64,000 bases of DNA from an uncultured Bacillales bacterium (GCA_937902735.1 CALELS010000013.1:134523-198522), one strand, 5' to 3'. Shown: positions 15,275 through 33,635, counted from the first letter of the stretch. Made by a program: numbers and translations. The notes: generated by a model from the letters alone, not told the origin.

Positions 15275-15333
15275 ATATGATAGATATTGCATCGTAATGC
15301 TCCGGAGCCTCGCAATAGCTTAGCAAAGGAGAA

Positions 15334-15552: not shown

Positions 15553-15569
15553 GGTGTCTTTTTGTTTTT

Positions 15570-15588: not shown

Positions 15589-15655
15589 ATTTGTTGCGCT
15601 ATTTTGAGTGTTGACAATAATTCAGAATATTGGTGTCGAAAGGAAACAAACACTA

Positions 15656-16071: not shown

Positions 16072-16074
16072 ATC

Positions 16075-16515
16075 ATGAAGATCTATATCAATTCTATTCA
16101 ATTTAACAAGAGCCTTGTTGATGGTCCAGGAGTGAGAACATTAGTTTTCTTCCAAGGCTGTGACATTCATTGTCCAGGATGTCAAAATCCATCTTCTTGG
16201 GATATTACAAAAGGAACTGAATATTCTGTCAAAAACCTATCAAAAATCATAAAAGATGGCACTTTTAACGGGAAAATCACACTTACTGGTGGTGAGCCAC
16301 TTATGCAAAAAGAAGCGTTAGTGGAGCTATTAAAAGAGCTCAAAGGTTTAGATGTCATAGTTTATACAGGACATCAAAAAGAAGACGTTCCAAATGAAGT
16401 ATGGAAACTCACTTCTTATGTCAAATGTGGTCCTTTCATTGAGCGACTTAAAACTACAATCAAGCCTTATGTGGGATCTAGTAATCAAGAATTAATTAAA
16501 TCGGAGGGCAAATAA
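16075..16515 (+). CDS. nrdG: Anaerobic ribonucleoside-triphosphate reductase activating protein (radical SAM)
   Basis: FFQGCDIHCPGCQNP (CxxxCxxC) at the N-terminus; size ~146 aa; directly upstream of nrdD. Confidence 0.85.
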   Translation: MKIYINSIQFNKSLVDGPGVRTLVFFQGCDIHCPGCQNPSSWDITKGTEYSVKNLSKIIKDGTFNGKITLTGGEPLMQKEALVELLKELKGLDVIVYTGHQKEDVPNEVWKLTSYVKCGPFIERLKTTIKPYVGSSNQELIKSEGK

Positions 16516-16517
16516 AT

Positions 16518-18224
16518 ATGAAACAAAACACTAATGAAAATGCAGCAAATAGAACCAGTTATGTTGGTCATGTCTATACGGTTGGTGAAAGAGCTTATAA
16601 ACAAGAAATACTTAACTCTCTTCCTGCTGAATGGAAAGATTTGCACACAAAAGGTTATATCCACATCCATGACTTAGATGCTTATGGATTAACTTATAAC
16701 TGTTTAACTTTTAATCTAGTTCCTAACTTTCCTTATGAAAGATTTAAAGATTTCTCTGAGCAAAGAAAGATAGTCAGATTATTTGATTTCCTTAAAGAGT
16801 TGTTTACCAAGATGGGAAATGAGCAATCTGGTGGTATGGCTTTTGCTAATTTTGATAATGAAATGGCAGAAGTTATTACCAAGCTCGGAATCACAATCAA
16901 TGATGTCAATCTTTCTTTAATCAAAGATGCTATCGGAGAGCTTATTCTCTGGTGCAACGACAACCATACTAGAATGGGTCAAACCAGCTACTATGTTACT
17001 TTTAACATCGGCTTAGCGGATAGTGACTTAGCTAGATCTATAGCTTCGTTCCTCCTTGATGAATTTTACACAGCTGGTGACCTTATCTATAAACCAAACA
17101 TTGTCTTTAAAGTCCATGCTGGTCATAACCGCTTCGCCGATGATCCTAATCATTATCTTCTTAAAAAAGCTTTACTATGTACTGCTAAGAAGATGATTCC
17201 TACCTACCTTCTTTGCGATAGTGCTCCAGATAAAAACTATGATCCATATCGCTTAGCTGTTATGGGTTGCCGCACAAGAGTTGTAACTGACGTCTATGGC
17301 TGTGAAGGCTCTATTGGAAGAGGCAATATTGATAACATTTCCATTAATCTTCCTAGACTTGCTTTAGAGATAGTCGAGAAATGGCCAAATATCGATGTGG
17401 ATGAAAGAGTCCGCAAATTTAAAAAGAGATGGAATGAAGTAGCAACTGTTACTAAAGACATCCTTTTGGATAGATATTACAAAACCTGCAAAAGACAAGC
17501 TGATGATTTTCCAACCAATTCCGAATATAAACTTTGGTGCAAAGATTTCACAACAGTTGACTCTTTAGAAGAGGTCTTTAAACACGGCACATTATCGCTT
17601 GGTTTTATTGGATTAAGTGAGGCTGTCGAAGTTTTAACTGGTGCTAAATATTACTCAAGCGCAGATAACTACGTTGTTGCATTGGGAATTGTCAAACACA
17701 TGAGAGATTTCTGTGATTTCTTAAGATATGACTACAATCTTAATTTCTCTTTGCTTGCTACTAGCGGTGAACTCATTTCAGGAAGATTTATCGATATTGA
17801 TAAAGAAATCTTCAAACCAGAAGTAGATATTTTCGCTAAAGGTTACTATACCAACTCGTTCCATATTGATGTAGATAGCGGACTTCCTGCTTACAAAAAG
17901 ATTCAAATGGAAGGATTATTTCATGAACTCTGCAATGGTGGATGCATCACGTATGTAGAGCTAGGTGAAGCTCCTTTAGGAAATTATGAAGGTCTACTTG
18001 AATATGTTGAAGTTGCCATCAAAGCAGGTACCCATTATTTAGGCTTTAATTTCCCAAAGGACATCTGTGATGAATGTGGCACAAGTGGTGTTTTTGACGA
18101 ATGCCCAGTTTGTCATAGCAAGCGCATCACTAGAATCAGAAGAGTATCTGGATATCTCGAGATATTAGATGGTTTTACCAAAGGCAAAAAGGCAGAAGAG
18201 AAAAACAGGAGGAAGAATGGATGA
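16518..18224 (+). CDS. nrdD: Anaerobic (class III) ribonucleoside-triphosphate reductase, compact phage-like form
   Basis: C-terminal zinc ribbon CDECG...CPVCH followed by the glycyl-radical motif RRVSGYLE. Confidence 0.9.
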   Translation: MKQNTNENAANRTSYVGHVYTVGERAYKQEILNSLPAEWKDLHTKGYIHIHDLDAYGLTYNCLTFNLVPNFPYERFKDFSEQRKIVRLFDFLKELFTKMGNEQSGGMAFANFDNEMAEVITKLGITINDVNLSLIKDAIGELILWCNDNHTRMGQTSYYVTFNIGLADSDLARSIASFLLDEFYTAGDLIYKPNIVFKVHAGHNRFADDPNHYLLKKALLCTAKKMIPTYLLCDSAPDKNYDPYRLAVMGCRTRVVTDVYGCEGSIGRGNIDNISINLPRLALEIVEKWPNIDVDERVRKFKKRWNEVATVTKDILLDRYYKTCKRQADDFPTNSEYKLWCKDFTTVDSLEEVFKHGTLSLGFIGLSEAVEVLTGAKYYSSADNYVVALGIVKHMRDFCDFLRYDYNLNFSLLATSGELISGRFIDIDKEIFKPEVDIFAKGYYTNSFHIDVDSGLPAYKKIQMEGLFHELCNGGCITYVELGEAPLGNYEGLLEYVEVAIKAGTHYLGFNFPKDICDECGTSGVFDECPVCHSKRITRIRRVSGYLEILDGFTKGKKAEEKNRRKNG

Positions 18225-18787
18225 TTTATTACATAGCAGATACACACTTTAGAGATCAGTCCATTTTTGATAAATGTAAGAGACCTTTTAAGTCAATCCT
18301 AGATATGGATGAGACCATTATTAACAATTGGAATAATAGAGTTAAGGATGACGACGTTATCTATGTTTTAGGTGACTTAGTTAGAGATGATGATGTTTCG
18401 GCTATTCAAATCTTTAATAGATTAAAAGGCCATAAGCACTTAATCGTTGGAAACCATGACCACCAATTATTAGACGTCATCAAAAGCTCTAACTTGTTTG
18501 AATCAATCAAGTTCATAGATTTGGTTATCGATAACAATCGCAAAGTCTGTGTTTGCCATTATCCATTAATGGATTGGATGGAATTCAATAGACAAGGCAT
18601 TCTAGTTTACGGTCATATCCATAATAAAACTGCAAAGAATGGCGATGCCTATAAACAAATAAAAGAGTTTTATAAAACATTACCTGCATATAACTGTGGT
18701 GTCGACGTATGCGATTTTGAACCAAAGACATTAGATGAGCTTATTCGTTTAAAGGAGGAAAACAAAGATGAACCATATATCAATTGA
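18221..18787 (+). CDS. Calcineurin-like metallophosphoesterase
   Basis: IADTHF, GDLVRDDD, GNHDHQ and GHIHN motifs. Confidence 0.75.
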   Translation: MIYYIADTHFRDQSIFDKCKRPFKSILDMDETIINNWNNRVKDDDVIYVLGDLVRDDDVSAIQIFNRLKGHKHLIVGNHDHQLLDVIKSSNLFESIKFIDLVIDNNRKVCVCHYPLMDWMEFNRQGILVYGHIHNKTAKNGDAYKQIKEFYKTLPAYNCGVDVCDFEPKTLDELIRLKEENKDEPYIN

Positions 18788-19346
18788 AGGCATGGATGGT
18801 GTTGGAAAGAGCACTGTCTGTCAACTTTTAGCAGAAAAGACTGGTTATACTTTTGTAACTAAGCCGCTTCATTATTTAACCGATTCCGATGATAGCAAAG
18901 ACTGGCCTAACTATTTCAGAGCCAGAGATATAGCTAACAATAGTGAAAATCGAGACTTTTCCGCATGGTTTTATGGCCTAGGCTTAATCTACAGCTACGA
19001 AAGATTCAAAAATCAAAACATCATCACGGATAGACATATCGTATCCAATTATTGTTGGAGTGGTGTTCCATCTAATATGGACATCTTTGATTTGCTTATT
19101 AAGAAACTTGGTGCGCCAACACTAACAGTGATTCTATATGCAAATGAAGATACAGTTCGTAGCAGACTCTTGAAAAGAGATCTAACAGATAGTGATTTAA
19201 AACGCGTTGATAAGACTGAAAAAGTCTATGAGAGAATGATAAGCTTCTGCGAGCTAAAACATTTCCCATACATCGTTATAGATACTTCAAAACTTAACCC
19301 AGAACAAATAGTGGACATCGTTCTTAAAAAGATGGAGGTGCTTTAA
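18768..19346 (+). CDS. P-loop nucleotide/nucleoside kinase (thymidylate-kinase/dNK-like)
   Basis: IEGMDGVGKSTV P-loop of the TMPK/dNK family. Confidence 0.65.
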   Translation: MNHISIEGMDGVGKSTVCQLLAEKTGYTFVTKPLHYLTDSDDSKDWPNYFRARDIANNSENRDFSAWFYGLGLIYSYERFKNQNIITDRHIVSNYCWSGVPSNMDIFDLLIKKLGAPTLTVILYANEDTVRSRLLKRDLTDSDLKRVDKTEKVYERMISFCELKHFPYIVIDTSKLNPEQIVDIVLKKMEVL

Positions 19347-21799
19347 TGAACTATAAATACTCAGAAGACATGAAATATTTAGCTCTTTATTGGGCTCTTA
19401 GATTTGTTGAAACAGAAGAAGACATAATGGTCAAAGAATATAAAGGCGGTTATAAAATAACCATTGATGCAGAGCACCAGTATGTTGATTTTGGCAATCG
19501 TATAACTATGATTGGCGACAAGACATTATCTTTAACCGACCATAAATCGTTTGTTGTCCTCGAATGTGTAGATAAACTTCTATCAATGGGTTACCTTCCA
19601 TCAGAGATCATCATAGATCTTCAAAATGAGTTCGATATTTATGCAAACAATTTATATATCAAATGCTTTGAATGGGGTCATATGGATGATAGCAATATCA
19701 CTCCAAAACCAGGTACATTTCTTTCGATTAAATATGAATCTAGATTAATCAGTGGAATCATTGAAAGAAAAACCGAAATCCGTGATGGATATGATACTTT
19801 CGAATATGGCATCTTTGATTTGAAAAAGAAACAACCCGTGTATCAATTAAGACATAAGAACTCCATCAAAACGGATAATAAAGACTTTGTTATCGAAGAT
19901 GATGTTTTCGTTAAATATAACGGTAATGATAAAAAAGTAGTCATACCAGAAGGCATTAAAGCTGTTGGGCCATGTGCGTTTTGGGATAATCAATCAATAG
20001 AAGAAGTGGTGCTTCCTAATTCGCTTATTAGCTTAGGCGGAGACACTTTCTATAATTGCAGAAATCTTAAAAAAGTAGTCATTCCATCTAAGGTAGAGAA
20101 AATTGCTAACAATCCTTTTGCTGGATGTCCTTTACTATCTTTAGAGAACCATTCAAAAAACTTTAAATTAGTGGATGATGTGCTCTTCGATAAAAAGAAA
20201 ACGATCCTTATCTATTACTCAATTTCTAAAAAGAATGAGAAATATAAAATCCCCTATGGTGTATCCATCGTTGGTAAGCATAGTTTCTTTATGGCGGATA
20301 ATCTTAAAGAAGTTATTATTCCATCAACAGTTAGAAAACTTGAAAACAATCCATTTTCTGGCTGTAGCAAACTAGAAGTCATTAATAAGTCTTCCTATAT
20401 TAATATTATTAATAAGGTTATATATAATCGCTTTAAATCAAGTGTCCTTGGTTGCATCAATTCAATTGAAGCAGATGAGCTTGTTTTAGAGCCAGTTAAA
20501 AGCATTGGTAGAAACTCCTTTTGGAATTGCAAAGGCATTAAGAAGATTGTTTTACCTGCTACATTGAAGCAGATTGGTTATAACCCTTTTGTTGGCTGCT
20601 CCAACATTCATTTTGAAAGCCATAGCGACGAGTATGTTGTTGATAATGACATCTTATTTGATAAGAACAAAAACAAAATAGTGTGCTATCCAGCTTGGAA
20701 AGCGGTCGGAGATGTTTATATTCCTGAATCAGTAATTGCTCTTGAAAGAGGCGCTTTTTCAGGATGCAATAGAATGACAGGCATCAACCTCCATAATGTA
20801 AACGTTATTAGCAAATCATGTTTTACAAACTGCTTATCTCTAGAAAGCATTTATTGTAGTGACTTAATCAAATACATTGGCGAATGGGCATTTGCTTATT
20901 GCACGGCGCTTAAGAACATTTCCATTTCACCTAAAACAAAAGTCGACAACAACGCTTTCTCTAATTGCAATCCATTAATTGAGATTAGAAATAATCTAAA
21001 TAACTATGTTATTGAATCTGATAACTTATTCACTTTAATGAGTATGACCGCTAATTATAGTGGAAGGATTGATTCGATTGTTATTGACCCACCATATAAC
21101 TCAAATATCGATTATATCGGCTATAAAGATTCCAATTACGATAATGGTTACATTTCTTTTATGAGGGAAAGACTAATTATTGCTTATCAGCTTTTAAGTA
21201 ATAAAGGTTTCTTGATTATCAACATAGATGATGGCGAGTTCAACAGCTTAACAACTCTATGCAAAGAGATTTTTGGTGATGATCTCGTTTCAACGCATAA
21301 ATGGAAGAAAAAGCATCCATTCTTCGATGCCAACAGGGTTGTATTGAATCCAAATAAAGTTCAAACAGATTTTGAGAACATCATTATTTGTAGAAAAACA
21401 GCTGAAGCAACCCTACATTCAATTTATCAACCTTACATTGATAATGGTGTTTTGAAAGAAAAGGAAACTAATGTACCAGATGTTTTTGATTGCTTTGGAA
21501 CAACGTCTTCTGCAAAAGATGAAATCTGCGAGTTATTTGGTACACGCGAGTATTTCTCAACACCTAAGCCGGTTAAGTTGATTAAAGAATTTGTTAGAGC
21601 AACCACTAATAAGGACTCAATTGTTGCTGATTTCTTCGCCGGTAGTGGAACTCTTGGACACGCAGTTTATGACTTAAACAAAGAAGATGGCGGCAACAGA
21701 CATTTCGTTTTAATTTCAAATAATGAATCTGATATTTGCCGCAAAGTAACTAAAAAGAGAATGGAACTGATTGGTTCAGCGTTCCAATTTCTTGGTTAG
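19346..21799 (+). CDS. Fusion protein: N-terminal domain + ~6 BspA-type leucine-rich repeats + C-terminal beta-class N6A/N4C DNA methyltransferase (PF01555-like)
   Basis: Repeats of the form VVIPEGIKAVGPCAFWDNQSIEEVVLPNSL...FYNCRNLKKVVIP. MTase motifs are IVIDPPYNS (IV), FSTPKPVKLIKEFV and DFFAGSGTLGHA (I), in beta-class order. Confidence 0.8.
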   Translation: MNYKYSEDMKYLALYWALRFVETEEDIMVKEYKGGYKITIDAEHQYVDFGNRITMIGDKTLSLTDHKSFVVLECVDKLLSMGYLPSEIIIDLQNEFDIYANNLYIKCFEWGHMDDSNITPKPGTFLSIKYESRLISGIIERKTEIRDGYDTFEYGIFDLKKKQPVYQLRHKNSIKTDNKDFVIEDDVFVKYNGNDKKVVIPEGIKAVGPCAFWDNQSIEEVVLPNSLISLGGDTFYNCRNLKKVVIPSKVEKIANNPFAGCPLLSLENHSKNFKLVDDVLFDKKKTILIYYSISKKNEKYKIPYGVSIVGKHSFFMADNLKEVIIPSTVRKLENNPFSGCSKLEVINKSSYINIINKVIYNRFKSSVLGCINSIEADELVLEPVKSIGRNSFWNCKGIKKIVLPATLKQIGYNPFVGCSNIHFESHSDEYVVDNDILFDKNKNKIVCYPAWKAVGDVYIPESVIALERGAFSGCNRMTGINLHNVNVISKSCFTNCLSLESIYCSDLIKYIGEWAFAYCTALKNISISPKTKVDNNAFSNCNPLIEIRNNLNNYVIESDNLFTLMSMTANYSGRIDSIVIDPPYNSNIDYIGYKDSNYDNGYISFMRERLIIAYQLLSNKGFLIINIDDGEFNSLTTLCKEIFGDDLVSTHKWKKKHPFFDANRVVLNPNKVQTDFENIIICRKTAEATLHSIYQPYIDNGVLKEKETNVPDVFDCFGTTSSAKDEICELFGTREYFSTPKPVKLIKEFVRATTNKDSIVADFFAGSGTLGHAVYDLNKEDGGNRHFVLISNNESDICRKVTKKRMELIGSAFQFLG

Positions 21800-21811
21800 G
21801 AGGAAGCATAT

Positions 21812-21991
21812 ATGTTCGATGTTCCAACTTGGGCTACTGTATTAGGAATAATCAATACAGTGATTAGCATGATAGCTTGTCCTATCATTGCAGGGTATAA
21901 GAACAGGAGCGTAGCCGGATGGTTTTTCGGAGGGTTATTCCTTGGACTTATTGGACTAATTATCGTTGCTTGTTTGCCTAGAAAAGACTAA
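21812..21991 (+). CDS. Small (59 aa) two-TM membrane protein, paralog of 4309..4491 (below ORF-track size cutoff)
   Basis: An AGGAGGAAGCATAT RBS precedes the ATG at 21812; stop TAA at 21989-21991. Sequence MFDVPTWATVLGIINTVISMIACPIIAGYKNRSVAGWFFGGLFLGLIGLIIVACLPRKD. Confidence 0.5.
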   Translation: MFDVPTWATVLGIINTVISMIACPIIAGYKNRSVAGWFFGGLFLGLIGLIIVACLPRKD

Positions 21992-22041
21992 ATGAAAAAG
22001 ACCACATTTCCTAAAAATAACTGGGATTTGTGGCCTTTTTG

Positions 22042-23781
22042 CTATAAAACAACAACTTTATACGCTAATGTTTGCGTCTTGAATGGGTCCTTACATTTGA
22101 TGTATCCATCTAGGATTGATGGTAGTGCAGCAATGGCTTGTCTGCTCTCTCTAAATTTATCTAGAGTGATTTTATTTGATGCATCGATTGTCACTACAAT
22201 TTCATGTTTATCAACCGCGATAATACGGTAGAAGAAGCAGTCCATCATTTCTTTGGTAAGCATCTTATAAGTTATTTCTTTGCCTTTTAAGATATCAATC
22301 ATCTTGGATAAGCGGACTTCAGCTTCTTTTCTTAAGACGGTCTTATCTTGGACCCTTTGTATTTCTGCGACTACGTTTTGATAATCATTAACTAAATCTT
22401 GGTAACGTGTATCCAATGTCTTTCTCATCTCAACCGTATTAGCGGCTGCTCTTTCTTTTAACAAGAAGTCGATATCTCCATTAAGTTGGCTCTTCTTTTC
22501 GAGTAGCCTATTGAGTTCTTCGTCAACATCTGTTTCTTCTGATAACGTAGATGTTAAAGCTTTAGATAGTTTATTAAAGGCATTAGTGTTACCCATATAA
22601 AGTTTATTAATGATATCAGCACATGCTCTTAGAATCATGTTTTCACTAAGTGGTTTTGAGTGGCATCGATGGGTTTTAGTTGGATAGATATAAGTATTGC
22701 ATTGGAACATAATCTTTGGCTGTCCATCAGGATAACCTTTATACCATGTTCTTCTTTTATAGGATGCTCCACAGCCATAGCAGATAATCATGCCGCTTAA
22801 TGGATGTTTGGTGTTGTATTTACTTAAATCTCTATTCTTCCCAACTGCTTTAGCGGATTGAGACTTAAGTCTAGCTTGCACTCTATTCCATTGTTCTATA
22901 GAAATAATGGGTTCATGTGCTCCCTCGACTTTATACTTTTGTCTTTGACCTCTATTTTCTCTACGCTTATGGGTAAGATAATCAACGGTATAAGTCTTTT
23001 GGAGTAATAAGTCACCCATGTATTTTTCGTTTCTAAGCATTCCTAGAACAGTGGTGTTATTCCAATTGGTTCTACCAGTCATGGTTTTAATGCCACGCTT
23101 TTTAAGTTCTCTACATATGGTGTCTGGTCCCTTGCCTGAATCATATAAATCAAATATCAAACGAACCACTTTAGCTTGCTCTTCATTGATGACTAATTGC
23201 TTTTTATCTTCGCTTAGGTCATAGCCCATGAAGTTTGATGGTGCTACAAATGGCACACCTTCACGCATTTTCTTTTGTACGGTCCATGTAACGTTCTCTG
23301 AAATGTGTCTACTCTCTTCTTGAGCCATAGAGCTAATTATTGAAAACATGAATTCGTTTTTAGCATCAAAGGTGCTTAGTCTTTCATTATCAAAATAAAC
23401 TTCGACACCTATTTCTTTCAGTTCACGTATTGTCTGGATTGTTAAGACAGTGTTTCTTGCAAATCTTGATATCGACTTAACTAGGATTAAATCAATCTTG
23501 CCAGCTTTGGCATCTTTAATCATTTGATTGAAACCGTTTCTACCTTTCGCTGACGTGCCGGATATACCTTCATCTGCGTAAACCTTTACTAATTGATAAT
23601 CAGGATTCTCAAGGATCCTTTTGGTCCACTCTTCAATTTGGTTGTTAAAAGAAGTGGATTGCTCTTCGCTGTCAGTACTAACACGACAGTACGCCGCAAC
23701 GCGTTTTACTCGCGACTCAGATAGATCTTTATCAAATATGCTATCCACCTTTGTAGGAGCAATAATTTGTACATTATTCAT
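22042..23781 (-). CDS. Large serine recombinase (resolvase catalytic domain + recombinase domain + Zn ribbon + coiled coil)
   Basis: AAYCRVSTDSEEQ catalytic Ser motif; CYGCG...C zinc ribbon; ~579 aa. Confidence 0.9.
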   Translation of the reverse strand: MNNVQIIAPTKVDSIFDKDLSESRVKRVAAYCRVSTDSEEQSTSFNNQIEEWTKRILENPDYQLVKVYADEGISGTSAKGRNGFNQMIKDAKAGKIDLILVKSISRFARNTVLTIQTIRELKEIGVEVYFDNERLSTFDAKNEFMFSIISSMAQEESRHISENVTWTVQKKMREGVPFVAPSNFMGYDLSEDKKQLVINEEQAKVVRLIFDLYDSGKGPDTICRELKKRGIKTMTGRTNWNNTTVLGMLRNEKYMGDLLLQKTYTVDYLTHKRRENRGQRQKYKVEGAHEPIISIEQWNRVQARLKSQSAKAVGKNRDLSKYNTKHPLSGMIICYGCGASYKRRTWYKGYPDGQPKIMFQCNTYIYPTKTHRCHSKPLSENMILRACADIINKLYMGNTNAFNKLSKALTSTLSEETDVDEELNRLLEKKSQLNGDIDFLLKERAAANTVEMRKTLDTRYQDLVNDYQNVVAEIQRVQDKTVLRKEAEVRLSKMIDILKGKEITYKMLTKEMMDCFFYRIIAVDKHEIVVTIDASNKITLDKFRESRQAIAALPSILDGYIKCKDPFKTQTLAYKVVVL

Positions 23782-23794
23782 TTATGAATACCTC

Positions 23795-23974
23795 CTACAC
23801 ATATACATCACTCTTGTTGGTATCATTATCAACAATTATGTCCCCTAAATGCAGGGTAGACTTGATACGAGCGTATTCATCTGGTGTGAGTAATTTTTCT
23901 TTATAGAAGTATGATAGGATCGCCACGATAATAGTGGCTTCCATTTCCTTATTATTAATATTTTGTATAGACAT
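23795..23974 (-). CDS. Small protein upstream of the recombinase (start at the internal ATG with a GAGGAG RBS)
   Basis: GAGGAGATTTTTT-ATG context; MSIQNINNKEMEATIIVAILSYFYKEK... Confidence 0.4.
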   Translation of the reverse strand: MSIQNINNKEMEATIIVAILSYFYKEKLLTPDEYARIKSTLHLGDIIVDNDTNKSDVYV

Positions 23975-24685
23975 AAAAAATCTCCTCGCCATTAAAGGCA
24001 AGAAGACATACGAGCAGTAAAGAATGCTCAATCTTTTCAACGCACCCTAATCTTATCACACCTAGCAGTGGTTCCCTAGATGCCCACAGGACATCAATTT
24101 CTATTAATAAGTCAAATAAGTCAAAAGCATTTACACACGCGATAACTTTAATAAATCCGATGATTTCTGCTTACGCGCGTAAAGAAAAAATTGCAAAAAT
24201 CGCTCCCATTGGTCCCATAGGGTTTGAGCGGTACAAACAAACTTTTTGGAAACCCGTCTTTTTAAATCTCACTTGTCCCTAGTGAGGTGAAAGGTGAGGT
24301 CAATGAGGTCATTTCTAAACTTTTTGTAAAAATCACTAAAAGTGAAAAAGAAAATGTGAGCAGAACAATGAGATAACCGCCATTAACTAGTGAGGGGATT
24401 AGAGTGTTTGCTTAAAAAAGTTAAAAGCTATACCCCAAAACAGCCCCACAAATGTGTGTAGTAGTGAAGAAGCTTAAGAAAGTTTGCTTCTAGGGTTAAC
24501 GATCTATCTTCTAAATGTCCTTATATCGCCTGAGATAGTAGACAAAATCTGCACACTTGGGTAACTAATTCGCCATAAACTGGTGAAAAGATGGTAGAAG
24601 GGGGGTCAAAAGACCAGATTCTTCTCCATATATAGTGAGGCTGATGTCTTGCCTAAAAAGACAAATCTTAAGAAAGGATAGTACT

Positions 24686-24937
24686 ATGAACAAAACTAAC
24701 GCAATGAGAATGTATCTTGTTATCAAAAGAGAGACTCTAGGTCTATCTATGCGCGAGACGTCACGCTTGTTACAGATGGATTTTCATTATTATTACCGTA
24801 TTGAGACTGGACTAATAACACGTGTAAGTTTTATCTCTTTGTGTAATATCGCGATGGTTTTAGGGATTAGTTTAAATGATCTCTTCAATATGGAGACGAT
24901 ATATCAAAAACAAAGCAAAGGAGCAGTGGATTTATGA
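24686..24937 (+). CDS. XRE-like HTH regulator, divergent from the recombinase
   Basis: KRETLGLSMRETSRLLQMDFHYYYRIETG. An AAAGGA RBS lies before the ATG at 24686. Confidence 0.55.
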   Translation: MNKTNAMRMYLVIKRETLGLSMRETSRLLQMDFHYYYRIETGLITRVSFISLCNIAMVLGISLNDLFNMETIYQKQSKGAVDL

Positions 24938-25025
24938 CAATCTTTTTAACGCAAAACCAGAAGACATAGTCGTTTAGTTTGCTGCTCCTAGCTTACTTGT
25001 TGGATTTAATAGGAGGCTAGTAGCT

Positions 25026-27224
25026 ATGAAGTTTTACAAATCCAATGTGTTGGGTATGCCTAGTAATACTAGATATCCTCACGAATTCGAAGCAAAACAA
25101 ACGACAAACAAAGAACAAATACGACAAATATTTAATAAGGACTATGTATGCGCTACATACAAGTATGACAAAAGGGACTGTGCTAACTTTCTAGTTTCAG
25201 ATTGTTTGGCTCTAGATTGTGACAACGACCATAGTGATGATCCAAATGCTTGGATTACTCCTGAGAACCTCATCAGTGAATTTGATAATGTGTTCATGAT
25301 CTTCCATATGTCTAGAAACAACATGAAAGAAAAAGATGGCAAAGCACCTAGACCTAAGTTTCATGTCTTTATGTCGATGGAACCAATTAAGAATCCAGAA
25401 GCATACGCGGAATTAAAAAGAAAAATTAATACCATATGGCCTTATTTTGACAAAAATGCAGAAGATGCTGCTCGTTTCTTCTTTGGCACTGAAGAACCTG
25501 AAGTTATTGTCTCTCCTGGTAAATTAACCATAAACGCTTATATCGACGCTTATGAAAAATTCGCCAATATGGACGATGATAATCAAGTCATTAAGTGTGG
25601 AGAAAGAAACTCAAAGTTATCTAAGTACGCTGCGATTATCTTAAAAAGATATGGCGATACTGAAGAAACCAGACAACTCTTCGAGGACAAAAATGAAAAA
25701 TGCTGTGAAGAACCACTTGAAGATTCTGAATTAAACCTCATTTGGAATAGTGCTCTTAAATTCTATAAAACAAAGATACTCACTAATCCGAATTATGTGA
25801 AACCAGATGAGTATGGTGGCGAATCCTATGTACCAAGTGACATGTCTGATGTTGGACAAGCATTAAAGTTTAGTGAGCATTATGGCTCTATTATCGCTTA
25901 TAACCCTGCGATGAAGTTTGTGGTCTATGACCAAAATAGATGGGTTGAAAGTGAAGAGCTTGCTCTAGCGGTCTTACATCAATTCACTAATAAACAAATC
26001 ATGGAAGCTTTTAAGCTCTATAGAGAAGCTAGTGATAGTGGTGATAAAGAAAGAATTGATAAGGCGAAAGCATATCTAAAATTTGTAACTAGCCGCAGAA
26101 ACTCTAACTATATCAACGCGACATTAAAACAAGCTACTCCTTATATAGGTGTTGATACTGAGAAATTCGATGCAGATCCGTTTCTCTTATCTACTCCTGA
26201 AGGTGTTTATGATTTAAGGATTGGTCCTTTTAGGCCAAAGCCACATAAACCAGAAGACTATATCACCAAAATGACTGCATGTTCCCCTTCTTTTAAAGGT
26301 AAGGACATCTGGGAGGAATCTTTAAATAAGATATTCTCAAACAATAAGGAATTAATTAGATACGTACAGCAGTGCTGTGGCTTAGCGGCAGTAGGAGCGG
26401 TATATGTTGAAATGATGCTTATTGCTCACGGTGAAGGCGGTAATGGTAAATCAACATTCTGGAACACCATCTTAAAAGTGTTCGGTGACTATGGTGGGAC
26501 TCTTAACAGTGACAATCTATTCGTAAATAACGGTAAATCATCTAGATTTGAAAAAGCGTTCCTAAAAGGAAAAAGACTAATCATTTCTAGCGAAAACGAA
26601 CAGGGAGCAAGGCTTAATGATGGAATGATCAAACAGCTATGTTCCACTGATAGAATCAAAGGTGAAAAGAAGTTCAAAGATGAGTTTGACTTTACTCCTT
26701 CTCATACAATGATTCTTTACACCAACCATTTGCCTAAAGTCACCACTGGTGATGATGGCACATGGCGTAGACTAAAAGTTATTCCGTTTACTAATAAGTT
26801 CACAGGCAATAACGACATTAAGAACTATTCCGAGTATCTATTTGAAAACTGTAAGGAATATATTCTATTTTGGGTCATGGAGGGTGCGAAAATTGTCATA
26901 GACAATAAATTCCACATCGAAGAGCCAAACGTCGTTCTAGAAGCTTGTAAACGATATAAGAATGAGAATGACTGGTTACATCAATTCATCAATGAGTGCT
27001 GTAAGCTCGGCGAAGATGAAAAAGTCAGCTCTGGAGAGCTTTATCTAAAGTATAGAGATTATGCTTGGCATAGAAATGAATATGTTCGTCCAAGTAATGA
27101 TTTCAAAGCAGCGATGGAGCTTGCTGGATTTAAAACGACTCATCCTCATAACAAAGTTATCTATCATGGCATCCGATTACTTACTGATAATGAATTGGGT
27201 GTCGAGGATGACTTTCTAAGTTAA
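25026..27224 (+). CDS. Phage/plasmid primase-helicase (P4/D5 family, SF3 NTPase C-terminal domain)
   Basis: LIAHGEGGNGKSTFWNTI Walker A, typical of P4-family primase C-terminal domains; 732 aa. Confidence 0.8.
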   Translation: MKFYKSNVLGMPSNTRYPHEFEAKQTTNKEQIRQIFNKDYVCATYKYDKRDCANFLVSDCLALDCDNDHSDDPNAWITPENLISEFDNVFMIFHMSRNNMKEKDGKAPRPKFHVFMSMEPIKNPEAYAELKRKINTIWPYFDKNAEDAARFFFGTEEPEVIVSPGKLTINAYIDAYEKFANMDDDNQVIKCGERNSKLSKYAAIILKRYGDTEETRQLFEDKNEKCCEEPLEDSELNLIWNSALKFYKTKILTNPNYVKPDEYGGESYVPSDMSDVGQALKFSEHYGSIIAYNPAMKFVVYDQNRWVESEELALAVLHQFTNKQIMEAFKLYREASDSGDKERIDKAKAYLKFVTSRRNSNYINATLKQATPYIGVDTEKFDADPFLLSTPEGVYDLRIGPFRPKPHKPEDYITKMTACSPSFKGKDIWEESLNKIFSNNKELIRYVQQCCGLAAVGAVYVEMMLIAHGEGGNGKSTFWNTILKVFGDYGGTLNSDNLFVNNGKSSRFEKAFLKGKRLIISSENEQGARLNDGMIKQLCSTDRIKGEKKFKDEFDFTPSHTMILYTNHLPKVTTGDDGTWRRLKVIPFTNKFTGNNDIKNYSEYLFENCKEYILFWVMEGAKIVIDNKFHIEEPNVVLEACKRYKNENDWLHQFINECCKLGEDEKVSSGELYLKYRDYAWHRNEYVRPSNDFKAAMELAGFKTTHPHNKVIYHGIRLLTDNELGVEDDFLS

Positions 27225-27239
27225 CTAAGGTTAGGCCGG

Positions 27240-27690
27240 TTAGGTTTATAACTACAACTCGCATAAGGAAGATTTTAATAGGGTCTATCCATATAGGAAG
27301 TAGTAGTTAATGAACTAACACACCTAACCTTTTCTTTATCTTAGTTTCAAAAAAAGTTATGAAATGAGTTCTCCGACCTCTCCTTATACCCCCCCTATGT
27401 ACTAAGTACATGATGCCATAGTACCGACTGGCCCGACGTCAGAAATACGGGAGGCAAATTTTCTCAGTTTTTGGATAATTCTCAGTACCATAAAGGGGAG
27501 GGGGTATCTGAATCTCTACGACTAAAAAAGTGGACACCGGCCTGGGGTTTCACGCACAAAAATCGCGAAATCAAAGGGGGAATAGGGTAAAAAGCAAACG
27601 CTGCTAATTTTATATCCATTAGGATATAACTTGCTATATTTCTCGACAAGAGCGACTATGTGTTTAGGAGGAAAAAAGCGTAAAAAACTT
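27240..27690. other. Structured noncoding region downstream of the primase: candidate replication origin of the element
   Basis: Palindrome ATGTACTAAGTACAT, complementary C-run and G-run (TATACCCCCCCT / AGGGGAGGGGGTAT), GGTTAGG/CCTAACC arms, and GC content well above the local background. Confidence 0.3.
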
Positions 27691-27946
27691 GAAAAAACGC
27701 ATTAAAAATATGAAAGAAAGTGAATTAAAAATCGGCATTAAAGTAAAAGCTATTTTAAGAGAAGATGGCAAGCATATTGTAGTCGGTGAGATCATGAGCA
27801 TTACGCTTGATAATCACCCATACCAAGAAACATGGGTATCGCTAAATGTGAGTGGTGGAGATGTTAATGATGACCAAGTCCATCTCATGATTAGAGATAA
27901 CGTGAATGTAACTATCCCGGCAGTAGATGTACTTGGATTATATTAA
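27689..27946 (+). CDS. Hypothetical small protein
   Basis: ORF only; start ambiguous between 27689 and 27710. Confidence 0.35.
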   Translation: MKKRIKNMKESELKIGIKVKAILREDGKHIVVGEIMSITLDNHPYQETWVSLNVSGGDVNDDQVHLMIRDNVNVTIPAVDVLGLY

Positions 27947-28041
27947 ATTTGTTACTAGTATATTAGCTTTTTCTTAACTAGTAATAGTGAAGAACGATAA
28001 AATATGATATCATTTTTGAGACGTGTTGCGAGGAATGTTTT

Positions 28042-31000
28042 ATGATAAACGATTCTTATTACAATGAATTTACTCAAAGAATTTTATTCGAGACCATTTT
28101 AAGTGAATTAAAAGAAAGAGGTGGCACAACATCTGGATACGGTACACTCTTTGAAAAATTCTGCCAAAAAATAATATTAACCTCGCCTTTCTTTGCTGAT
28201 GATGTTGTTAATGTTTGGTTATGGAAAGACTTTCCTGGTAACGGCGGACTTCACGATAACGGAATTGATATTGTTGTTTTGGATAAAAATAATTCTTTTT
28301 GGGCTGTTCAATGTAAATTTTACGATAAAGATGCATCGGTAAACAAATCAGATATTGATTCCTTTATTGCAGCGACAATTCGCGAATTTGTCTTTGAAGG
28401 GAGAACATATAATTTCTCACAAAGATATGTATTTTCAACAACCGAAAGTGTGAGCCAAAACGCTTCAGGCATGTTTGTCTTATTTGGGCCTGAGTCAATC
28501 TTCCAATGTGGTATTGATTGGGAACACTTTTCACTTGATGAAGTGGACAACATGCAAGCTCTCGGTAAAAAATCACCGAAGCCACATCAAGAAACAGCTA
28601 TTGAAAAAGTGTTGGAAGGATTTAAAACGAATGATCGTGGAAGGCTCATCATGGCTTGTGGCACAGGAAAAACATATACCTCATTAAAAATTGTCGAAAA
28701 GTATATTGAATTATTAAAATCAAATAGTGCTAAAAACATTCTCTATCTAGTACCTTCTATTCCTTTGCTTTCCCAAACGATTTTAGAGTGGAAAACGCAG
28801 ACATTATTGCATAATTGCAATATGTTTGGTGTGTGTTCAGATGAAACAGCTGGTCAAGATAGGAGGACAAGAAATCGTGATGAGCTGACTGTTCAAATGC
28901 CAATTCCTGCTACAACAGACTCTTCGAAAATCAAGGAAGAATTGGATAAAGGAACTGCAAATGTTAATTTCTTTTTTTCCACATACCAATCAATTGATGT
29001 TGTTAACAAAGTTCAAAATGATTGTGATATAGAATTCGATATGGTTATCTGCGACGAGGCGCATAGAACTATTGGTGCTTTCAAAGAAGAAGATGAAGAT
29101 ATTTCGTGTTTTATCAAAGTTCATGATAAGGACTTTATTAAAGCTTCAAAAAGACTTTATATGACAGCGACGGAGAAGATATATTCTTCTAATGCTAAAG
29201 CAGATGCTGAAGAAGGTGGCTGGAACGTTTATTCAATGGATGATGAATCGATTTATGGTCCTGAATTCTATTATTTATCTTTCGGTGATGCTGTAACAAA
29301 ACAACTATTGACTGATTATAGATTGTTGGTATTAAACATCAGAAAATCGGATGTAGCCAATCTAAGATTACCAGAATCTGCATTTTCAAATTTGGATGAT
29401 GCCTCACGCATAATTGGTGCGCTAACTGCTTTATCAAAAATCCCTCCAGAATATAATCCTGAGGAATTCGAACAAGACCCAAAACCAATGAAAAGAGTTG
29501 TCGCTTTCTGTTCTACTATAGCGCAAGCCGATTCAATTGCTCAATCCTTTAATCACTTAGCTGATAAAAAGTGTTTGGGTGAAGAATATATGAGAGATCA
29601 AGGCTTTGTTATTCCTCACGCAAAATTAATAACTGGTCAAGATAACACCAAAGAAAAAAATAAGAAACTCAATTGGCTGAGAGACGAAATTGAAGATGGT
29701 GAATGTAGAATTCTTACCAATGCTAGATGTCTCTCGGAGGGAGTTGATGTTCCGTCTCTAGACTCTGTTGTTTTTATGGCCAAGAAAAGATCACAAGTTG
29801 ACATTATTCAAGCTGTTGGAAGAGTCATGAGAAAGTTCGGGAGCGGTAGCGAGAAAAAATATGGTTACATTGTCATTCCTGTAGTGATTAGCGATGAAAG
29901 AATGACTGATAAAACATTATCTGCTAACGAAGACTACAAAGTGGTTTGGCAAGTAGTTCAAGCTTTAAGATCACACGACGAAAGACTAGATACAGAAATA
30001 AATAAGGTGGGTGTAACAGGACGTTTACCTCAAAGCATTTGCATTTTAAATACATTCATACCACCAATATCAAGAAAAGGACACAAAGTCAGTTCTTTGA
30101 GACAGGAGCAAGAAGAAGGCTTGGATACAGATAACCCAGTCGCTTCTGCCGGCGATTATGTTGTGAGAATCCCATCTGATGAAGAATTAAAAGAGAATGA
30201 AAAAACTTTTAGCGCCCAACTTGTTAAACATTGTGGGAACAGGTTGTATTGGGAAGACTGGTCAAAAAATATTGGCGATGTAACTAATAATGTTGCTTTA
30301 AAAATTAAATCTCAAATTACTGACTCACCTAGTGCAAACCGTTCATTTCAAAAATTTGTTAAGGATTTAAGAAAACTTTTAAATCCAAGTGTGTCAGAAG
30401 AAGATTGTGTTAGCATGCTTTCTGAGCACATTGTCACTCTCCCGGTATTAAAGAGCATTTTTTTAGAAAACACATTAATTGATAACAATCCAATTACCAT
30501 AATTATGGAATCAATGGTTAAAAGATTAAGTGATTTAAATTCAGAATTAGAAGAACTTGAGCCATTTTATCAATCTGTAAGAAAAACCGTAGAGGGTGTA
30601 ACAAGTTCCGAAGGAAGACAAGAAATCATTAGAAAACTGTTTGAAAAATTCTTCCAATATGCTCTTCCACAATCAGCTGAAAAATTTGGAATTGTTTACA
30701 CTCCGGTTGAGATAGTTGATTTTATTATCAACTCAGTCAAATATACTTTAAACGCTTCTTTTGAAGCAAATTTAACAGATAAAAACATCAAAATACTAGA
30801 TCCTTTTACCGGTACAGGAACATTTGTTGTTCGATTGCTGGATATTCTAAAAGAATCAGCAGTTTCTGAAGAAGATTTTAAATATAAATACTTAAATGAC
30901 ATCTGGTGCAATGAAATAATGCTCCTTTCATACTACATTGCGTTAATTAATATTGAGGATGCCTACACTAGAAACAACGGTTCGATTCTACCCTTTGAGC

Positions 31001-32889
31001 ATGCGGTTTTAACTGACACATTCCAATTGGCTGAGAAGAGAAAAAAGAAGTATTTCTCTACAGTTTTGTTTGAAGAACAAGAATTCACTGTTGCTAATCA
31101 AAAAGCAAGAGAAGAAGATGAGGATGATATAAGAATTATAATTGGTAATCCTCCTTATTCGGCTGGCCAAAAGAGCGCAAACGATAAAAACAAAAATGAT
31201 AAATATGACAATCTGGATGGCCGAATTTCCGACACTTATTTAAAAAATACGAGTGTTGTTGCAGCTAAGTCTATGTATGATTCATATGTTAGGGCTTTTA
31301 GATGGGCCTCTGACAGAATATCTGATAACGGGATTATTTCTTTCGTTTCCAATGGCTCGTATATAGACAGTGTTGCTTTTAATGGTTTTAGAAGAGAACT
31401 TGTGAAAGAATTTAATTCCGTTTACGTGTTCAATCTTCGAGGGAACCAAAGAACACAAGGAGAAGTTTCGAGAAAAGAGGGCGGTAAGATATTTGGGAGC
31501 GGCTCTAGGAATACTATTGCAATCATTGTTCTCGTGAAAAAACACAATCAAGCTTTTGATGGTTTTATTCACTACTATGATATAGGTGATTATTTATCTA
31601 GGGAGGAAAAACTCGATATTATTAGAAATTTCAAAAGCATAGAAAATATTCCGTGGGAGAAGATTACCCCTGACGATAACAACGACTGGATTAATAAAAA
31701 AGATACATCATTTACAAAGTTCACTGTTATAGCTAATAAAAAGGGAAAAGAAGAATCTGTTTTTGGCAGTCGTGTATCATTGGGTTGCTCTACTGCTCGT
31801 GATTCTTGGGTTTACAATTTTTCAAAGAAAACCTTAATAGAAAACGTTGATGAATTTATAGATTTTTATAACAGTCAAAGACAAGCTTTCTTTGCTGCGA
31901 AAGCAAAAAATTCAAAATTGATAGCAGAAGAATTCTTAACCTTTGATAAAACAAAGATTACATGGGGCAGAGATATACTTAAAAGATTGAAAAAGAATTC
32001 GCCTATACAAAATAATAACGATATAAGAGTTGTTATGTATCGTCCTTTCGTAAAGAAATATCTTAATTTTAACACCGATTTAATCAGCGATCCTTCTTTG
32101 GTAGACAGTATATTTCCTAGAGGCAGCAATAATGTTTGTATCGCATTAGCAGCGCCCCCATTAACTCAGGAGTTCTCTTGTATGGTTTCGAATTGTATCT
32201 GTGACTATCATTTATTAGGTCAGACACAAATGATGCCTTTGTTCTGGAACGAAGAAAGCAGTAGCGACAGCATTTCTATTTTTGATGACACCACGATAGA
32301 TGGGATCAGCGATGAGTTTTTGGCAAAATGCCGAGCTAAATTTAGCGATAATTCGTTAACTCACAGGGATATATTTGCTTATGTCTATGGTCTTTTACAC
32401 TCAAAACAATACAAAGAAAAATACAAAAATAACCTTTCTAAAGAATTGCCGCGCATACCTCTCTTGGAGGGATATAAAAAGTATATTGACATTGGTAACA
32501 AGCTTATTGACTTGCATATTAATTATGAAACCCTTAAACCTACTGATGTAGTGAAAACAAAAATCAAAAAAGATAATTACAAAATAACAACCATCAAATT
32601 CCAAAACAAAAATAAGGATGCCATCGTTTTTAATGACGATATTTTGATTTATAACATCCCTGCAAAAATTTATGATTATAAATTAAATGGTCGCAATCCA
32701 ATTGAATGGGTCTTAGATCAATATCAATATTTCGTCGATCCTTCCTCTCAGAACATTGACGACCCAAACCTTTACGATGAGAAACAAAATGGAAAGTATA
32801 TTTTTAATTTGATTCACTCACTTATTACTATGTCTTTAAAAACAATTGAATTGGCAGAGAGCCTTCCAGATTACAAAGAAATTGATTAG
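28042..32889 (+). CDS. Type ISP (LlaGI/LlaBIII-like) single-polypeptide restriction-modification enzyme: Mrr-like nuclease + SF2 translocase + gamma N6-adenine MTase + TRD
   Basis: Mrr_cat motif DNGIDIVV...VQCKFY. Helicase motifs ACGTGKTYT (I), VICDEAHRT (II), MTATEK (III), LSEGVDVPSLD (V) and QAVGRVMR (VI). MTase motifs LDPFTGTGTF (I) and IIGNPPYSAGQ (IV). 1615 aa. Confidence 0.8.
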   Translation: MINDSYYNEFTQRILFETILSELKERGGTTSGYGTLFEKFCQKIILTSPFFADDVVNVWLWKDFPGNGGLHDNGIDIVVLDKNNSFWAVQCKFYDKDASVNKSDIDSFIAATIREFVFEGRTYNFSQRYVFSTTESVSQNASGMFVLFGPESIFQCGIDWEHFSLDEVDNMQALGKKSPKPHQETAIEKVLEGFKTNDRGRLIMACGTGKTYTSLKIVEKYIELLKSNSAKNILYLVPSIPLLSQTILEWKTQTLLHNCNMFGVCSDETAGQDRRTRNRDELTVQMPIPATTDSSKIKEELDKGTANVNFFFSTYQSIDVVNKVQNDCDIEFDMVICDEAHRTIGAFKEEDEDISCFIKVHDKDFIKASKRLYMTATEKIYSSNAKADAEEGGWNVYSMDDESIYGPEFYYLSFGDAVTKQLLTDYRLLVLNIRKSDVANLRLPESAFSNLDDASRIIGALTALSKIPPEYNPEEFEQDPKPMKRVVAFCSTIAQADSIAQSFNHLADKKCLGEEYMRDQGFVIPHAKLITGQDNTKEKNKKLNWLRDEIEDGECRILTNARCLSEGVDVPSLDSVVFMAKKRSQVDIIQAVGRVMRKFGSGSEKKYGYIVIPVVISDERMTDKTLSANEDYKVVWQVVQALRSHDERLDTEINKVGVTGRLPQSICILNTFIPPISRKGHKVSSLRQEQEEGLDTDNPVASAGDYVVRIPSDEELKENEKTFSAQLVKHCGNRLYWEDWSKNIGDVTNNVALKIKSQITDSPSANRSFQKFVKDLRKLLNPSVSEEDCVSMLSEHIVTLPVLKSIFLENTLIDNNPITIIMESMVKRLSDLNSELEELEPFYQSVRKTVEGVTSSEGRQEIIRKLFEKFFQYALPQSAEKFGIVYTPVEIVDFIINSVKYTLNASFEANLTDKNIKILDPFTGTGTFVVRLLDILKESAVSEEDFKYKYLNDIWCNEIMLLSYYIALINIEDAYTRNNGSILPFEHAVLTDTFQLAEKRKKKYFSTVLFEEQEFTVANQKAREEDEDDIRIIIGNPPYSAGQKSANDKNKNDKYDNLDGRISDTYLKNTSVVAAKSMYDSYVRAFRWASDRISDNGIISFVSNGSYIDSVAFNGFRRELVKEFNSVYVFNLRGNQRTQGEVSRKEGGKIFGSGSRNTIAIIVLVKKHNQAFDGFIHYYDIGDYLSREEKLDIIRNFKSIENIPWEKITPDDNNDWINKKDTSFTKFTVIANKKGKEESVFGSRVSLGCSTARDSWVYNFSKKTLIENVDEFIDFYNSQRQAFFAAKAKNSKLIAEEFLTFDKTKITWGRDILKRLKKNSPIQNNNDIRVVMYRPFVKKYLNFNTDLISDPSLVDSIFPRGSNNVCIALAAPPLTQEFSCMVSNCICDYHLLGQTQMMPLFWNEESSSDSISIFDDTTIDGISDEFLAKCRAKFSDNSLTHRDIFAYVYGLLHSKQYKEKYKNNLSKELPRIPLLEGYKKYIDIGNKLIDLHINYETLKPTDVVKTKIKKDNYKITTIKFQNKNKDAIVFNDDILIYNIPAKIYDYKLNGRNPIEWVLDQYQYFVDPSSQNIDDPNLYDEKQNGKYIFNLIHSLITMSLKTIELAESLPDYKEID

Positions 32890-32898
32890 GGAGATTTT

Positions 32899-33630: not shown

Positions 33631-33635
33631 TTCGC

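Follow-up and report, generated by a model that had tools for sequence, protein, structure and literature searches.

What kind of mobile element lies in the middle of a 64-kb stretch of DNA from an uncultured member of the Bacillales (GCA_937902735.1, CALELS010000013.1:134523-198522)? This stretch, taken at its full length, is called the window below, and positions are counted from its first nucleotide. The core under study, at 22042-27690, consists of genes for a large serine recombinase, a small protein, an XRE-family regulator and a P4-type primase, followed by structured noncoding DNA; it is contained in a conserved unit with limits at 21996-27947. With somewhat better than even confidence, this unit is read here as the core of an integrative phage satellite of the phage-inducible chromosomal island (PICI) kind, in an uncultured Erysipelotrichaceae-like host. 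The components of the unit are listed below; L numbers denote other contigs and loci used in the comparisons.

21996-22041, no strand: left edge of the unit with the recombinase terminator hairpin; homology with L004 begins exactly at 21996.
22042-23781, minus strand: int1, large serine recombinase of 579 aa (Pfam: Resolvase, 1.4e-32; Recombinase, 6.6e-27; Zn_ribbon_recom, 1.2e-7).
23795-23944, minus strand: small gene upstream of int1, 49 aa according to the gene caller, in an open reading frame (ORF) that reaches 24040 (49-81 aa); also called in L001/L004.
24041-24685, no strand: conserved noncoding control region of about 600 nt, with GTGAGGT iteron-like repeats at 24286-24342.
24686-24937, plus strand: XRE-family helix-turn-helix (HTH) regulator of 83-100 aa, depending on the start codon (Pfam: HTH_3, 4.4e-6).
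25026-27224, plus strand: P4-family primase/D5-type helicase of 732 aa (Pfam: D5_N, 2.6e-24; DUF5906, 5.3e-18).
27227-27331, plus strand: long hairpin of 105 nt, starting 3 nt past the primase stop codon (DNA fold of -16 kcal/mol, z = -3.1).
27334-27390, minus strand: inverted copy of an upstream 57-mer, 70% complementary to 24286-24342 (repeat search).
27491-27591, plus strand: motif of the type found upstream of the small terminase subunit gene (terS), a candidate cohesive-end-like (cos-like) or late-control element, conserved in 16 island contigs.
27710-27946, plus strand: 78-aa gene leading the cargo, with 122 clusters of 71-100% identity, mostly on very short contigs.

The genes and orientations proposed in an earlier annotation of the window made from the DNA alone (the sequence-only reading), with a serine recombinase and small gene directed leftward and an XRE regulator and P4-type primase directed rightward, were all recovered. 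The recombinase int1 matches integrase family phrog_95 of PHROGs (6.9e-126), and its counterpart in L004 is 99% identical; its top NCBIfam model is CcrB, at 150.7 bits, which is far under the 900-bit cut-off of that model. The small gene has no match in Pfam or PHROGs, has counterparts of 63-65 aa in L005/L092 and possibly encodes a directionality factor or a regulator. The XRE gene diverges from the small gene and int1, with the control region of about 600 nt between them; it is assigned to phrog_3/phrog_8 (repressor or regulator) and is kept in L004, L005, L006, L092 and L105. The primase passes the TIGR01613 domain model ('phage/plasmid primase, P4 family') with 234.8 bits against a cut-off of 108.7, matches phrog_1883 (4.4e-259) and has 4494 homologues at E<=1e-20; no close relatives of it were found in IMG/VR. 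Its gene shows 66% nucleotide identity to that of an Anaeroplasmataceae Heliusvirales phage and its helicase core bears a likeness to C962R of African swine fever virus. By the phrog_1883 match and the nucleotide identity to this phage, the primase is nearest to those of phages.

The arrangement of these genes is non-random; the same unit, noncoding DNA included, recurs in independent contigs at 72-99% primase identity. It was found in at least eight metagenomic contexts, with different genes on either side and with a shared order of recombinase (minus strand), small gene (minus), XRE gene (plus), primase (plus), noncoding block and, often, the 78-aa gene. The closest copy, in L004, has a 99% identical primase and 94.7% DNA identity over exactly 21996-27947; beyond these limits the sequences are unrelated, and the left side of L004 carries GmrSD and other genes. 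L006 is 83% identical to window positions 23751-27950 and continues with type I restriction-modification (RM) cargo. The primases of L005 and L092 are 72-73% identical to that of the window and the gene order is kept, L005 having DUF6339/methylase/UvrD cargo. In L105, the segment from the XRE gene through the primase to the block is 92% identical to the window, but the recombinase is of the L005 type (94% to L005) and the cargo is Ssp-like; L105 also has an ABC-transporter flank in common with the window (L105 2078-6410 corresponding to window 4336-8672, 81.5%), while the left flank of the unit itself differs in both L004 and L105. L088 and L089 have a 785-aa ORF in the primase position, and L089 also has two tandem recombinases. 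The core is therefore a module of mosaic composition that undergoes recombination and has variable genes to either side of it. The idea of a conserved portable unit, running from the recombinase through the small gene, XRE gene and primase to the noncoding block and accompanied by variable, mostly defence cargo, is borne out.

The noncoding DNA of the unit is conserved above the level of its coding parts. In the control region at 24041-24685, the window, L004 and L006 are near-identical in alignment blocks, though L006 averages 83% over the whole unit, and these blocks are retained in L005 too; the region is a candidate operator and/or origin. The block after the primase spans about 460 nt ahead of the 78-aa gene, and the hairpin at 27227-27331 forms its left edge. 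This hairpin is kept in eight homologues, with a consensus structure showing both-side changes at several pairs. The inverted copy of the 57-mer next to it is present in L004, L006, L090, L098 and L100 and absent from L005 and L092; L006 has a perfect 32-nt copy after its primase. A C-run and further conserved blocks separate the 57-mer copy from the motif. Structured DNA directly after the primase, as described in the sequence-only reading, is thus present both as a hairpin and as an inverted repeat copy, and an origin at the iteron-like repeats and the hairpin may be proposed. The label 'ori-like' given to this DNA does not hold as a description of an origin only; the block has the terS-upstream motif inside it and would be, at least in part, a packaging or late-control element. 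The window contains no Rfam family at gathering thresholds. A match to PyrR, obtained at a relaxed threshold in the 23.9-28.05 kb region, was at chance level and was rejected.

The motif at 27491-27591 links the unit with phages. A search with a 25-nt pattern from it retrieved 13 further public contigs (two from IMG/VR and 11 metagenome contigs), and in the eight contexts having upstream sequence the motif is located downstream of the primase or, in L088/L089, of the 785-aa ORF in that position. A blastn search with 27225-27690 gave noncoding matches in ten phages of Anaeroplasmataceae, Ruminococcus, Erysipelothrix, Streptococcus, Terrisporobacter and other hosts; used by itself as a blastn query, the phi1605 motif matched nothing but phi1605. 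In phi1605 and NatCom_34063, the match sits in the gap between the HNH endonuclease gene and terS, and in Javan422, Javan630 and NatCom_2329 it is immediately 5' of the terS position, the motif-to-terS distance in phages being about 25-120 nt. The gene after the motif encodes the small terminase subunit (phrog_83, 1e-30 to 1e-36) in the four phages scanned, that is, all of these but Javan630. HNH-dependent cos phages reportedly hold their cos site in the gap between the HNH gene and terS.

The position of the motif was assessed with a model, R1, built from 12 island copies only (alignment A5), with no phage sequence. R1 gave a single match in the window and exactly one match in each of the phage loci (5/5), at the terS-upstream spot, with E from 1e-7 to 8e-12. 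Among 80 IMG/VR loci, picked solely by their terS relative (at least 597 such relatives exist), 76 were matched, once each and on the terS strand, and nearly all matches end about 25 nt before the terS start; two of the four loci missed have no upstream DNA and the other two have a copy that is, by eye, visibly diverged. With this fixed position, the motif constantly accompanies terS genes of this family. Sister islands of the L088, L094 and L096 type share the motif-terS layout. In L096, the motif is succeeded by terS (phrog_83, 5.4e-29), then by a 78-aa-gene homologue and finally by polysaccharide-synthesis cargo, and no other phage gene was detected there; the PHROGs scan of the window found no terS. 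In the phage NatCom_34063 (L109, PV036447.1, 25.5-50 kb), terS and the portal/capsid genes stand about 8 kb apart, the interval being filled by accessory genes, methyltransferase and ParB-like genes among them, and in Javan422, Javan630 and phi1605 terS is followed by methyltransferase and S-adenosylmethionine synthetase genes. As far as gene order indicates, the phage layout of motif, terS and variable genes is the same as in the islands.

Visual inspection of the joint island and phage alignment showed no consistently covarying RNA helix in the motif, which favours a site in the DNA over an RNA element. The motif could be cos or terS-binding DNA, or else a late promoter or leader of the terS operon; both would serve the exploitation of a helper. 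The end of L089 and the start of L122, both IMG/VR contigs, fall inside the motif near 'CGGC/CTGGGG' and could represent either genuine virion termini or interruptions of the assembly; as evidence for cos they are anecdotal, because other contigs break elsewhere. A literature search on the cohesive ends of motif-bearing phages yielded nothing usable.

Pfam and PHROGs scans of window ORFs of at least 90 aa revealed no capsid, terminase, tail or lysis genes across the 64 kb. No module of an intact prophage (terminase, portal, capsid, tail, lysis) is present in the window, which is bordered by an ABC transporter operon at one end and by rlmD with surface-protein genes at the other; the region is therefore not an intact prophage, in accordance with the initial annotation. 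Searches of phage and plasmid collections found no close relatives, the similarity being only at the level of genes and amounting to 65-70%. The core combines an integrase gene, divergent regulatory genes and its own primase with the lack of capsid, tail and lysis genes, which are among the features used to recognise PICIs.

The nearest known parallel is provided by the cos-type Staphylococcus aureus pathogenicity islands (SaPIs) SaPIbov4/SaPIbov5, a PICI subfamily in which a conserved helper cos site is found in place of the terS operon (PMC5052747). In these islands, an integrase, a divergent regulator and a primase/replicase are followed by a copy of the helper packaging-site region that stands in for the terS operon, and the window has the same order with a putative counterpart of this region; in both, virion genes are absent and accessory genes are carried, and the SaPI helpers are HNH-dependent cos phages (PMC5052747). 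The differences are also clear. The integrase is a serine enzyme here and a tyrosine enzyme there; the primase-helicase is of the P4/D5 type and presumably unrelated in sequence to the Pri-Rep of SaPIs; interference genes such as ccm and ppi were not recognised; defence systems make up the cargo, which is far more extensive; the element resides in an uncultured Erysipelotrichaceae-like bacterium; and the cos function of the motif is putative. SatelliteFinder treats serine and tyrosine integrases as exchangeable, and the defence genes of PICIs may be placed at the integrase end, between the attachment (att) site and the integrase, or at the opposite end (PMC10085698).

Two further satellite groups are comparable in part. 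P4-like satellites share the C-terminal domain of the P4-family primase (TIGR01613), the use of a helper packaging site, putative for the window element, without a terminase of their own and the role of defence-gene hotspots. The two repeat sets flanking the primase gene in the window are reminiscent of the ori and crr sites of P4. In contrast to P4-like satellites, no homologues of psu, sid, delta or alpA and no tyrosine integrase appeared in the Pfam/PHROG scans, the P4-family primase domain alone being present; the host is of the Gram-positive type and the regulatory logic is different. Minimal satellites of the Streptococcus thermophilus StCI/PICMI type are likewise small integrase-regulator-primase elements without capsid-remodelling genes, and have putative cos sites like those of their helpers (PMC13376191; see also PMC10803314); they differ from the window element in integrase class and primase family context, and its defence cargo is far larger. 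The element is most likely of a known kind, a phage satellite, in a new form that combines a serine recombinase, a P4-type primase and a borrowed terS-upstream element.

The following life cycle may be proposed for such a satellite. The large serine recombinase would integrate and excise the element. The XRE protein would silence it by way of the 600-nt control region; once a product of the helper phage has lifted this repression, the P4-family primase-helicase would replicate the excised circle from the inverted iteron-like repeats that flank its gene and/or from the hairpin after its stop codon. The motif at 27491-27591 would be a copy of the terS-upstream element of Heliusvirales-like and Streptococcus/Erysipelothrix-type phages; it would allow the terminase or late-gene activator of the helper to act on the satellite, which might then be packaged in helper capsids, as in cos-type SaPIs. 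The neighbouring variable genes (RM, helicase-nuclease, SoFic and AbiE) would be defence cargo.

Several observations weigh against this interpretation. The assignment of the motif as a cos site is putative, and it could be a late promoter or leader instead. According to the Pfam/PHROGs scans, the window copy has no terS and no capsid-size or interference gene, and neither att repeats, an empty site nor an excision junction was found for it. In L090, L098/L099 and L100 the block is present, with its hairpin and motif, but recombinase and primase are missing, and in L114 (10001-10264) the 78-aa gene precedes an RM-type system although the block is absent; neither part is therefore exclusive to an intact satellite. 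In L005/L092 the element lies beside repeats of the rlmD 3' end, described below, whereas the int1 core has the opposite orientation to these repeats and none of them is adjacent to it. If the genes to its left belong to the element, its size of about 27 kb would exceed the roughly 7-20 kb of typical PICIs. Finally, AbiEii in the right-hand cargo is cut after residue 179 and covers positions 1-159 of the 306 in the model, compared with a protein of 313 aa in L100.

The PICI-like reading proposed from the sequence alone therefore holds only in part. The gene order, the portable unit, the terS-linked motif and the terS genes of sister islands speak for it; a single island with its integrase at the left end and 27 kb of its own cargo found no support. 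The likeliest description is that of a PICI-like satellite core that borrows the packaging or late-control site of a helper, with a recombinase of the serine type and a primase of the P4 type, and that lies embedded, possibly immobilised, in a mosaic defence island beside an array resembling the staphylococcal cassette chromosome (SCC).

This array, located at 40.6-56.2 kb, gives rise to the alternative that survives best, namely that the element is an SCC-like replicative integrative cassette with a Ccr-like recombinase and a D5/Cch-like helicase-primase, which targets the rlmD 3' end and stacks with recombinase-less cassettes, the motif being a cargo leader or a relic of descent. The features of the array are as follows.

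40599-56157, minus strand: six direct copies of the rlmD 3' end, including that at 56157.
54344-56080, plus strand: int2, second large serine recombinase, 46% identical to int1 and convergent with rlmD.
Segments between the repeats: Fic-like gene; DUF4143 ATPase (PDC-S01); 122-aa gene with a Schlafen/AlbA gene; GNAT gene.
9.4-kb element of the array: type IIG RM, DprA-like gene and int2.

The rlmD gene itself is recognised by TIGR00479 (415.7 bits). Its last approximately 14 codons ('HVET[IV]V.L..K*', with the DNA core CAYGTNGARAC) reappear on the same strand at 46745, 45540, 43526, 41933 and 40631. A 20-nt pattern of the rlmD end has three exact copies and a fourth, at 45521-45540, with up to three mismatches, a setting at which shuffled sequence gives 0.3 matches on average. 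Ahead of int2, the 50040-54343 region holds small unknown genes, a DprA-like (ShosA/PsyrA-like) gene and a RecE-like fragment (phrog_434), with noncoding stretches at 50040-50670 and 53823-54098 and no primase. Similar repeats occur elsewhere: three after rlmD in L012, one in L092 and two in L005, where they flank a complete 16.9-kb element comprising recombinase, XRE gene, primase, block and cargo. The 40.6-56.2 kb region is an entity separate from the int1 core, an SCC-like tandem array of mostly defence-type genes with its own recombinase, and resembles SCC composite islands at rlmH.

The likeness to SCC elements (SCCmec and its relatives) thus extends to the Ccr-like large serine recombinase with a neighbouring replicative helicase/primase and, for the array and for L005 as the primase-bearing element, to insertion at the 3' end of an rRNA methyltransferase gene, regeneration of the gene end and tandem arrays with recombinase-less cassettes. 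SCCmec is said to have the helicase Cch beside ccr, to insert into the rlmH 3' end and to form composite arrays. CcrB is the top NCBIfam model of both window recombinases, and the six rlmD-end copies bound five short segments, each with one or two genes, as well as the 9.4-kb int2 element. The target of int2 and of the L005-type relatives is, however, the 3' end of rlmD, not that of rlmH (orfX). The recombinases are not Ccr equivalogs either, the scores of 150.7 bits for int1 and 137.3 bits for int2 falling far under the family cut-off of 900, so that they do not count as ccrAB or ccrC recombinases. The int1 core stands in the opposite orientation to the array and is not accompanied by a target repeat; the high identity of the motif, its tie to terS in about 78 phage loci and the terS genes of sister islands, which set the element apart from SCC, would be left unexplained. 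An SCC-like cassette is accordingly considered unlikely, albeit the foremost of the alternatives. A hybrid lifestyle has a similarly small chance of being correct: Ccr-like recombinases would build SCC-style defence arrays in two places, one of them the rlmD 3' end; some of the cassettes would be full satellites with a P4-type primase and a pirated Heliusvirales-like terS-proximal element, and the array would be movable by phage capsids. In a variant of this idea, the recombinase, XRE gene and primase would form a self-sufficient mobile 'engine' of 5.2 kb, able to dock beside such packaging elements.

Less probable still is a minimal integrative replicon of 5.2 kb (recombinase, small gene, XRE gene and primase, 21996-27226), inserted site-specifically at the left edge of the block of an older island, to which the block, the 78-aa gene and the cargo would belong. 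Both edges of this segment are recurrent breakpoints. On the left, the homology of L105/L005 likewise begins at the outer edge of the recombinase terminator. On the right, at about 27226, 2-3 nt past the primase stop codon, the block starts in L090, L098/L099 and L100, all of which are without recombinase and primase: in L090, it stands between an ABC transporter with a 300-aa gene and HsdM; in L098/L099, it is preceded by a 59-aa gene; and in L100, it lies between AbiE-AbiH and the 78-aa gene. There is also a short similarity ('ACTTTCT...CTAA') among the primase end, the left flank of L004 and the 'empty' site of L098. These junctions, however, are A/T-rich and do not have the imperfect dyad symmetry expected of serine-recombinase att sites, and L098 has 85 extra nucleotides, unlike a simple empty site. 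The iteron-like 57-mer is common to the block and the core, recombination has also taken place inside the core (L105), and the linkage of primase and block holds for primases down to less than 50% identity where upstream sequence is available, except in L106-L108 with a truncated primase. A decayed Heliusvirales-like prophage, which has lost its structural genes and is now fixed in the defence island, is very improbable: the primase, XRE gene, recombinase and terS-upstream motif all have phage relatives, AbiEii is truncated, att sites were not found and parts of the unit are found separately, but in phages a distance of about 10 kb, occupied by helicase, HNH and other genes, separates the primase from the motif, whereas at least eight independent island contexts keep them adjacent in a compact order with intact ORFs and with noncoding DNA conserved above the coding level, a repeated order that random decay would not yield.

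The core has variable genes on both sides, which bears on the extent of the element. The relevant genes are given below.

28042-32889, plus strand: type ISP/IIG RM of 1615 aa (Pfam, PADLOC).
32899-36629, plus strand: PDC-S69-like nuclease and UvrD/GajB-like helicase (Pfam, PADLOC).
Within the right-hand cargo at 28042-40098, plus strand: 136-aa gene.
37410-38513, plus strand: SoFic (PADLOC).
38820-40098, plus strand: AbiEi and truncated AbiEii (Pfam, PADLOC).
12848-21991, plus strand: left genes, encoding unknown proteins of 377 aa and 427 aa, an HTH protein, NrdG/NrdD, a phosphoesterase, a kinase-like protein, a leucine-rich repeat (LRR)-DNA methylase and a 59-aa membrane protein (Pfam/PHROGs).

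The 78-aa gene follows the motif in L004, L006, L093, L095, L097 and L100 and follows terS in L096. Its all-beta product, for which the AlphaFold2 model is poor (pLDDT 57), is repeatedly encoded just ahead of RM-type systems, even where primase or motif is absent. The genes downstream of the core are, as had been supposed, defence genes according to PADLOC, but the supposed 27 kb of defence cargo is a composite and not one cargo, given the truncation of AbiEii at about 40100 and the separate nature of the 40.6-56.2 kb region. In the 39559-40294 region, a 95-aa ORF that runs in the other direction (40007-40294) overlaps the 3' end of AbiEii, and this marks a rearrangement junction; because AbiEii is truncated, the cargo attached to the core ends near 40100. 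Nor did the placement of the recombinase at the edge of the element find support, since variable genes also lie to the left of int1. The genes at 12848-21991 are possibly the left-hand cargo of the same element. A metagenome contig of the same strain ends near 12660, and the 377-aa protein encoded at 12848 is 34% identical to the product of the first gene of the repeat-bounded L005 element; these two facts tentatively suggest an element spanning about 12.6-40.1 kb. The core and right cargo together measure about 18 kb (22.0-40.1 kb), or about 27 kb with the left genes, compared with 16.9 kb for the L005 relative.

The comparison with relatives that had been recommended, for att direct repeats and an empty site, demonstrated neither for the window copy. 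No repeats were found between the candidate ends at 7.6, 12.6, 22.0 and 40.1 kb, no relics of the 59-aa gene right of int1 and no rlmD relics left of 40.6 kb. The window contains no tRNA or tmRNA genes, and att sites of the tRNA type were therefore rejected. The 59-aa membrane-protein gene is present in two copies with 94% aa identity, at 4312-4491, ahead of the ABC-transporter operon, and at 21812-21991, abutting the int1 terminator; a third homologue is located directly before the block in L098. The search for an empty site by way of the rlmD flank among GTDB genomes gave a best relative of 71% identity, with synteny not conserved. The island is mosaic, and the window copy may be immobile.

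The far-left flank of the window is an iron-type ABC transporter operon and the far-right flank carries rlmD, a nucleotidase gene and a surface protein gene. For the rlmD flank, the closest GTDB genomes are metagenome-assembled genomes of uncultured rumen Erysipelotrichaceae, with identities of 71% at most, so that the GTDB representatives do not include the species of the window. Exact-protein look-ups of the flank genes returned the same strain only.

Left of the core, the gene at 19346-21799 encodes a protein of 817 aa in which BspA-type leucine-rich repeats are fused to an N6/N4 DNA methyltransferase domain, an unusual architecture. Beside this methylase, at 16075-19346, NrdG, NrdD, a phosphoesterase (phrog_547) and a thymidylate-kinase-like protein (phrog_761) form a phage-like nucleotide-metabolism set outside any prophage. 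To the left of the island, at 1624-3621 and 10274-12555, a PtuA/AriA-like AAA_15 ATPase, a PD-T4-1/NOV_C protein and a protein with a TnsA-like endonuclease domain are encoded by additional genes of the defence type; the PD-T4-1-like and PtuA/AriA-like genes were identified by PADLOC.

Phage satellites are well known in Staphylococcus, enterobacteria and Vibrio and hardly known in gut and rumen Bacillota outside the cocci, and the locus represents a testable candidate satellite family for uncultured Erysipelotrichaceae-like hosts. The rlmD-end array offers an independent, SCC-like way to stack defence genes. The 100-nt motif is a searchable DNA signature, which stands ahead of terS genes of a single family in about 78 of the 80 viral contigs examined and links the islands to the Heliusvirales, one of the most widespread lineages of gut phages. 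If the motif is a cos site, pairs of helper and satellite would be identifiable straight from metagenomes, and the spread of large defence cargos in these communities would be explained.

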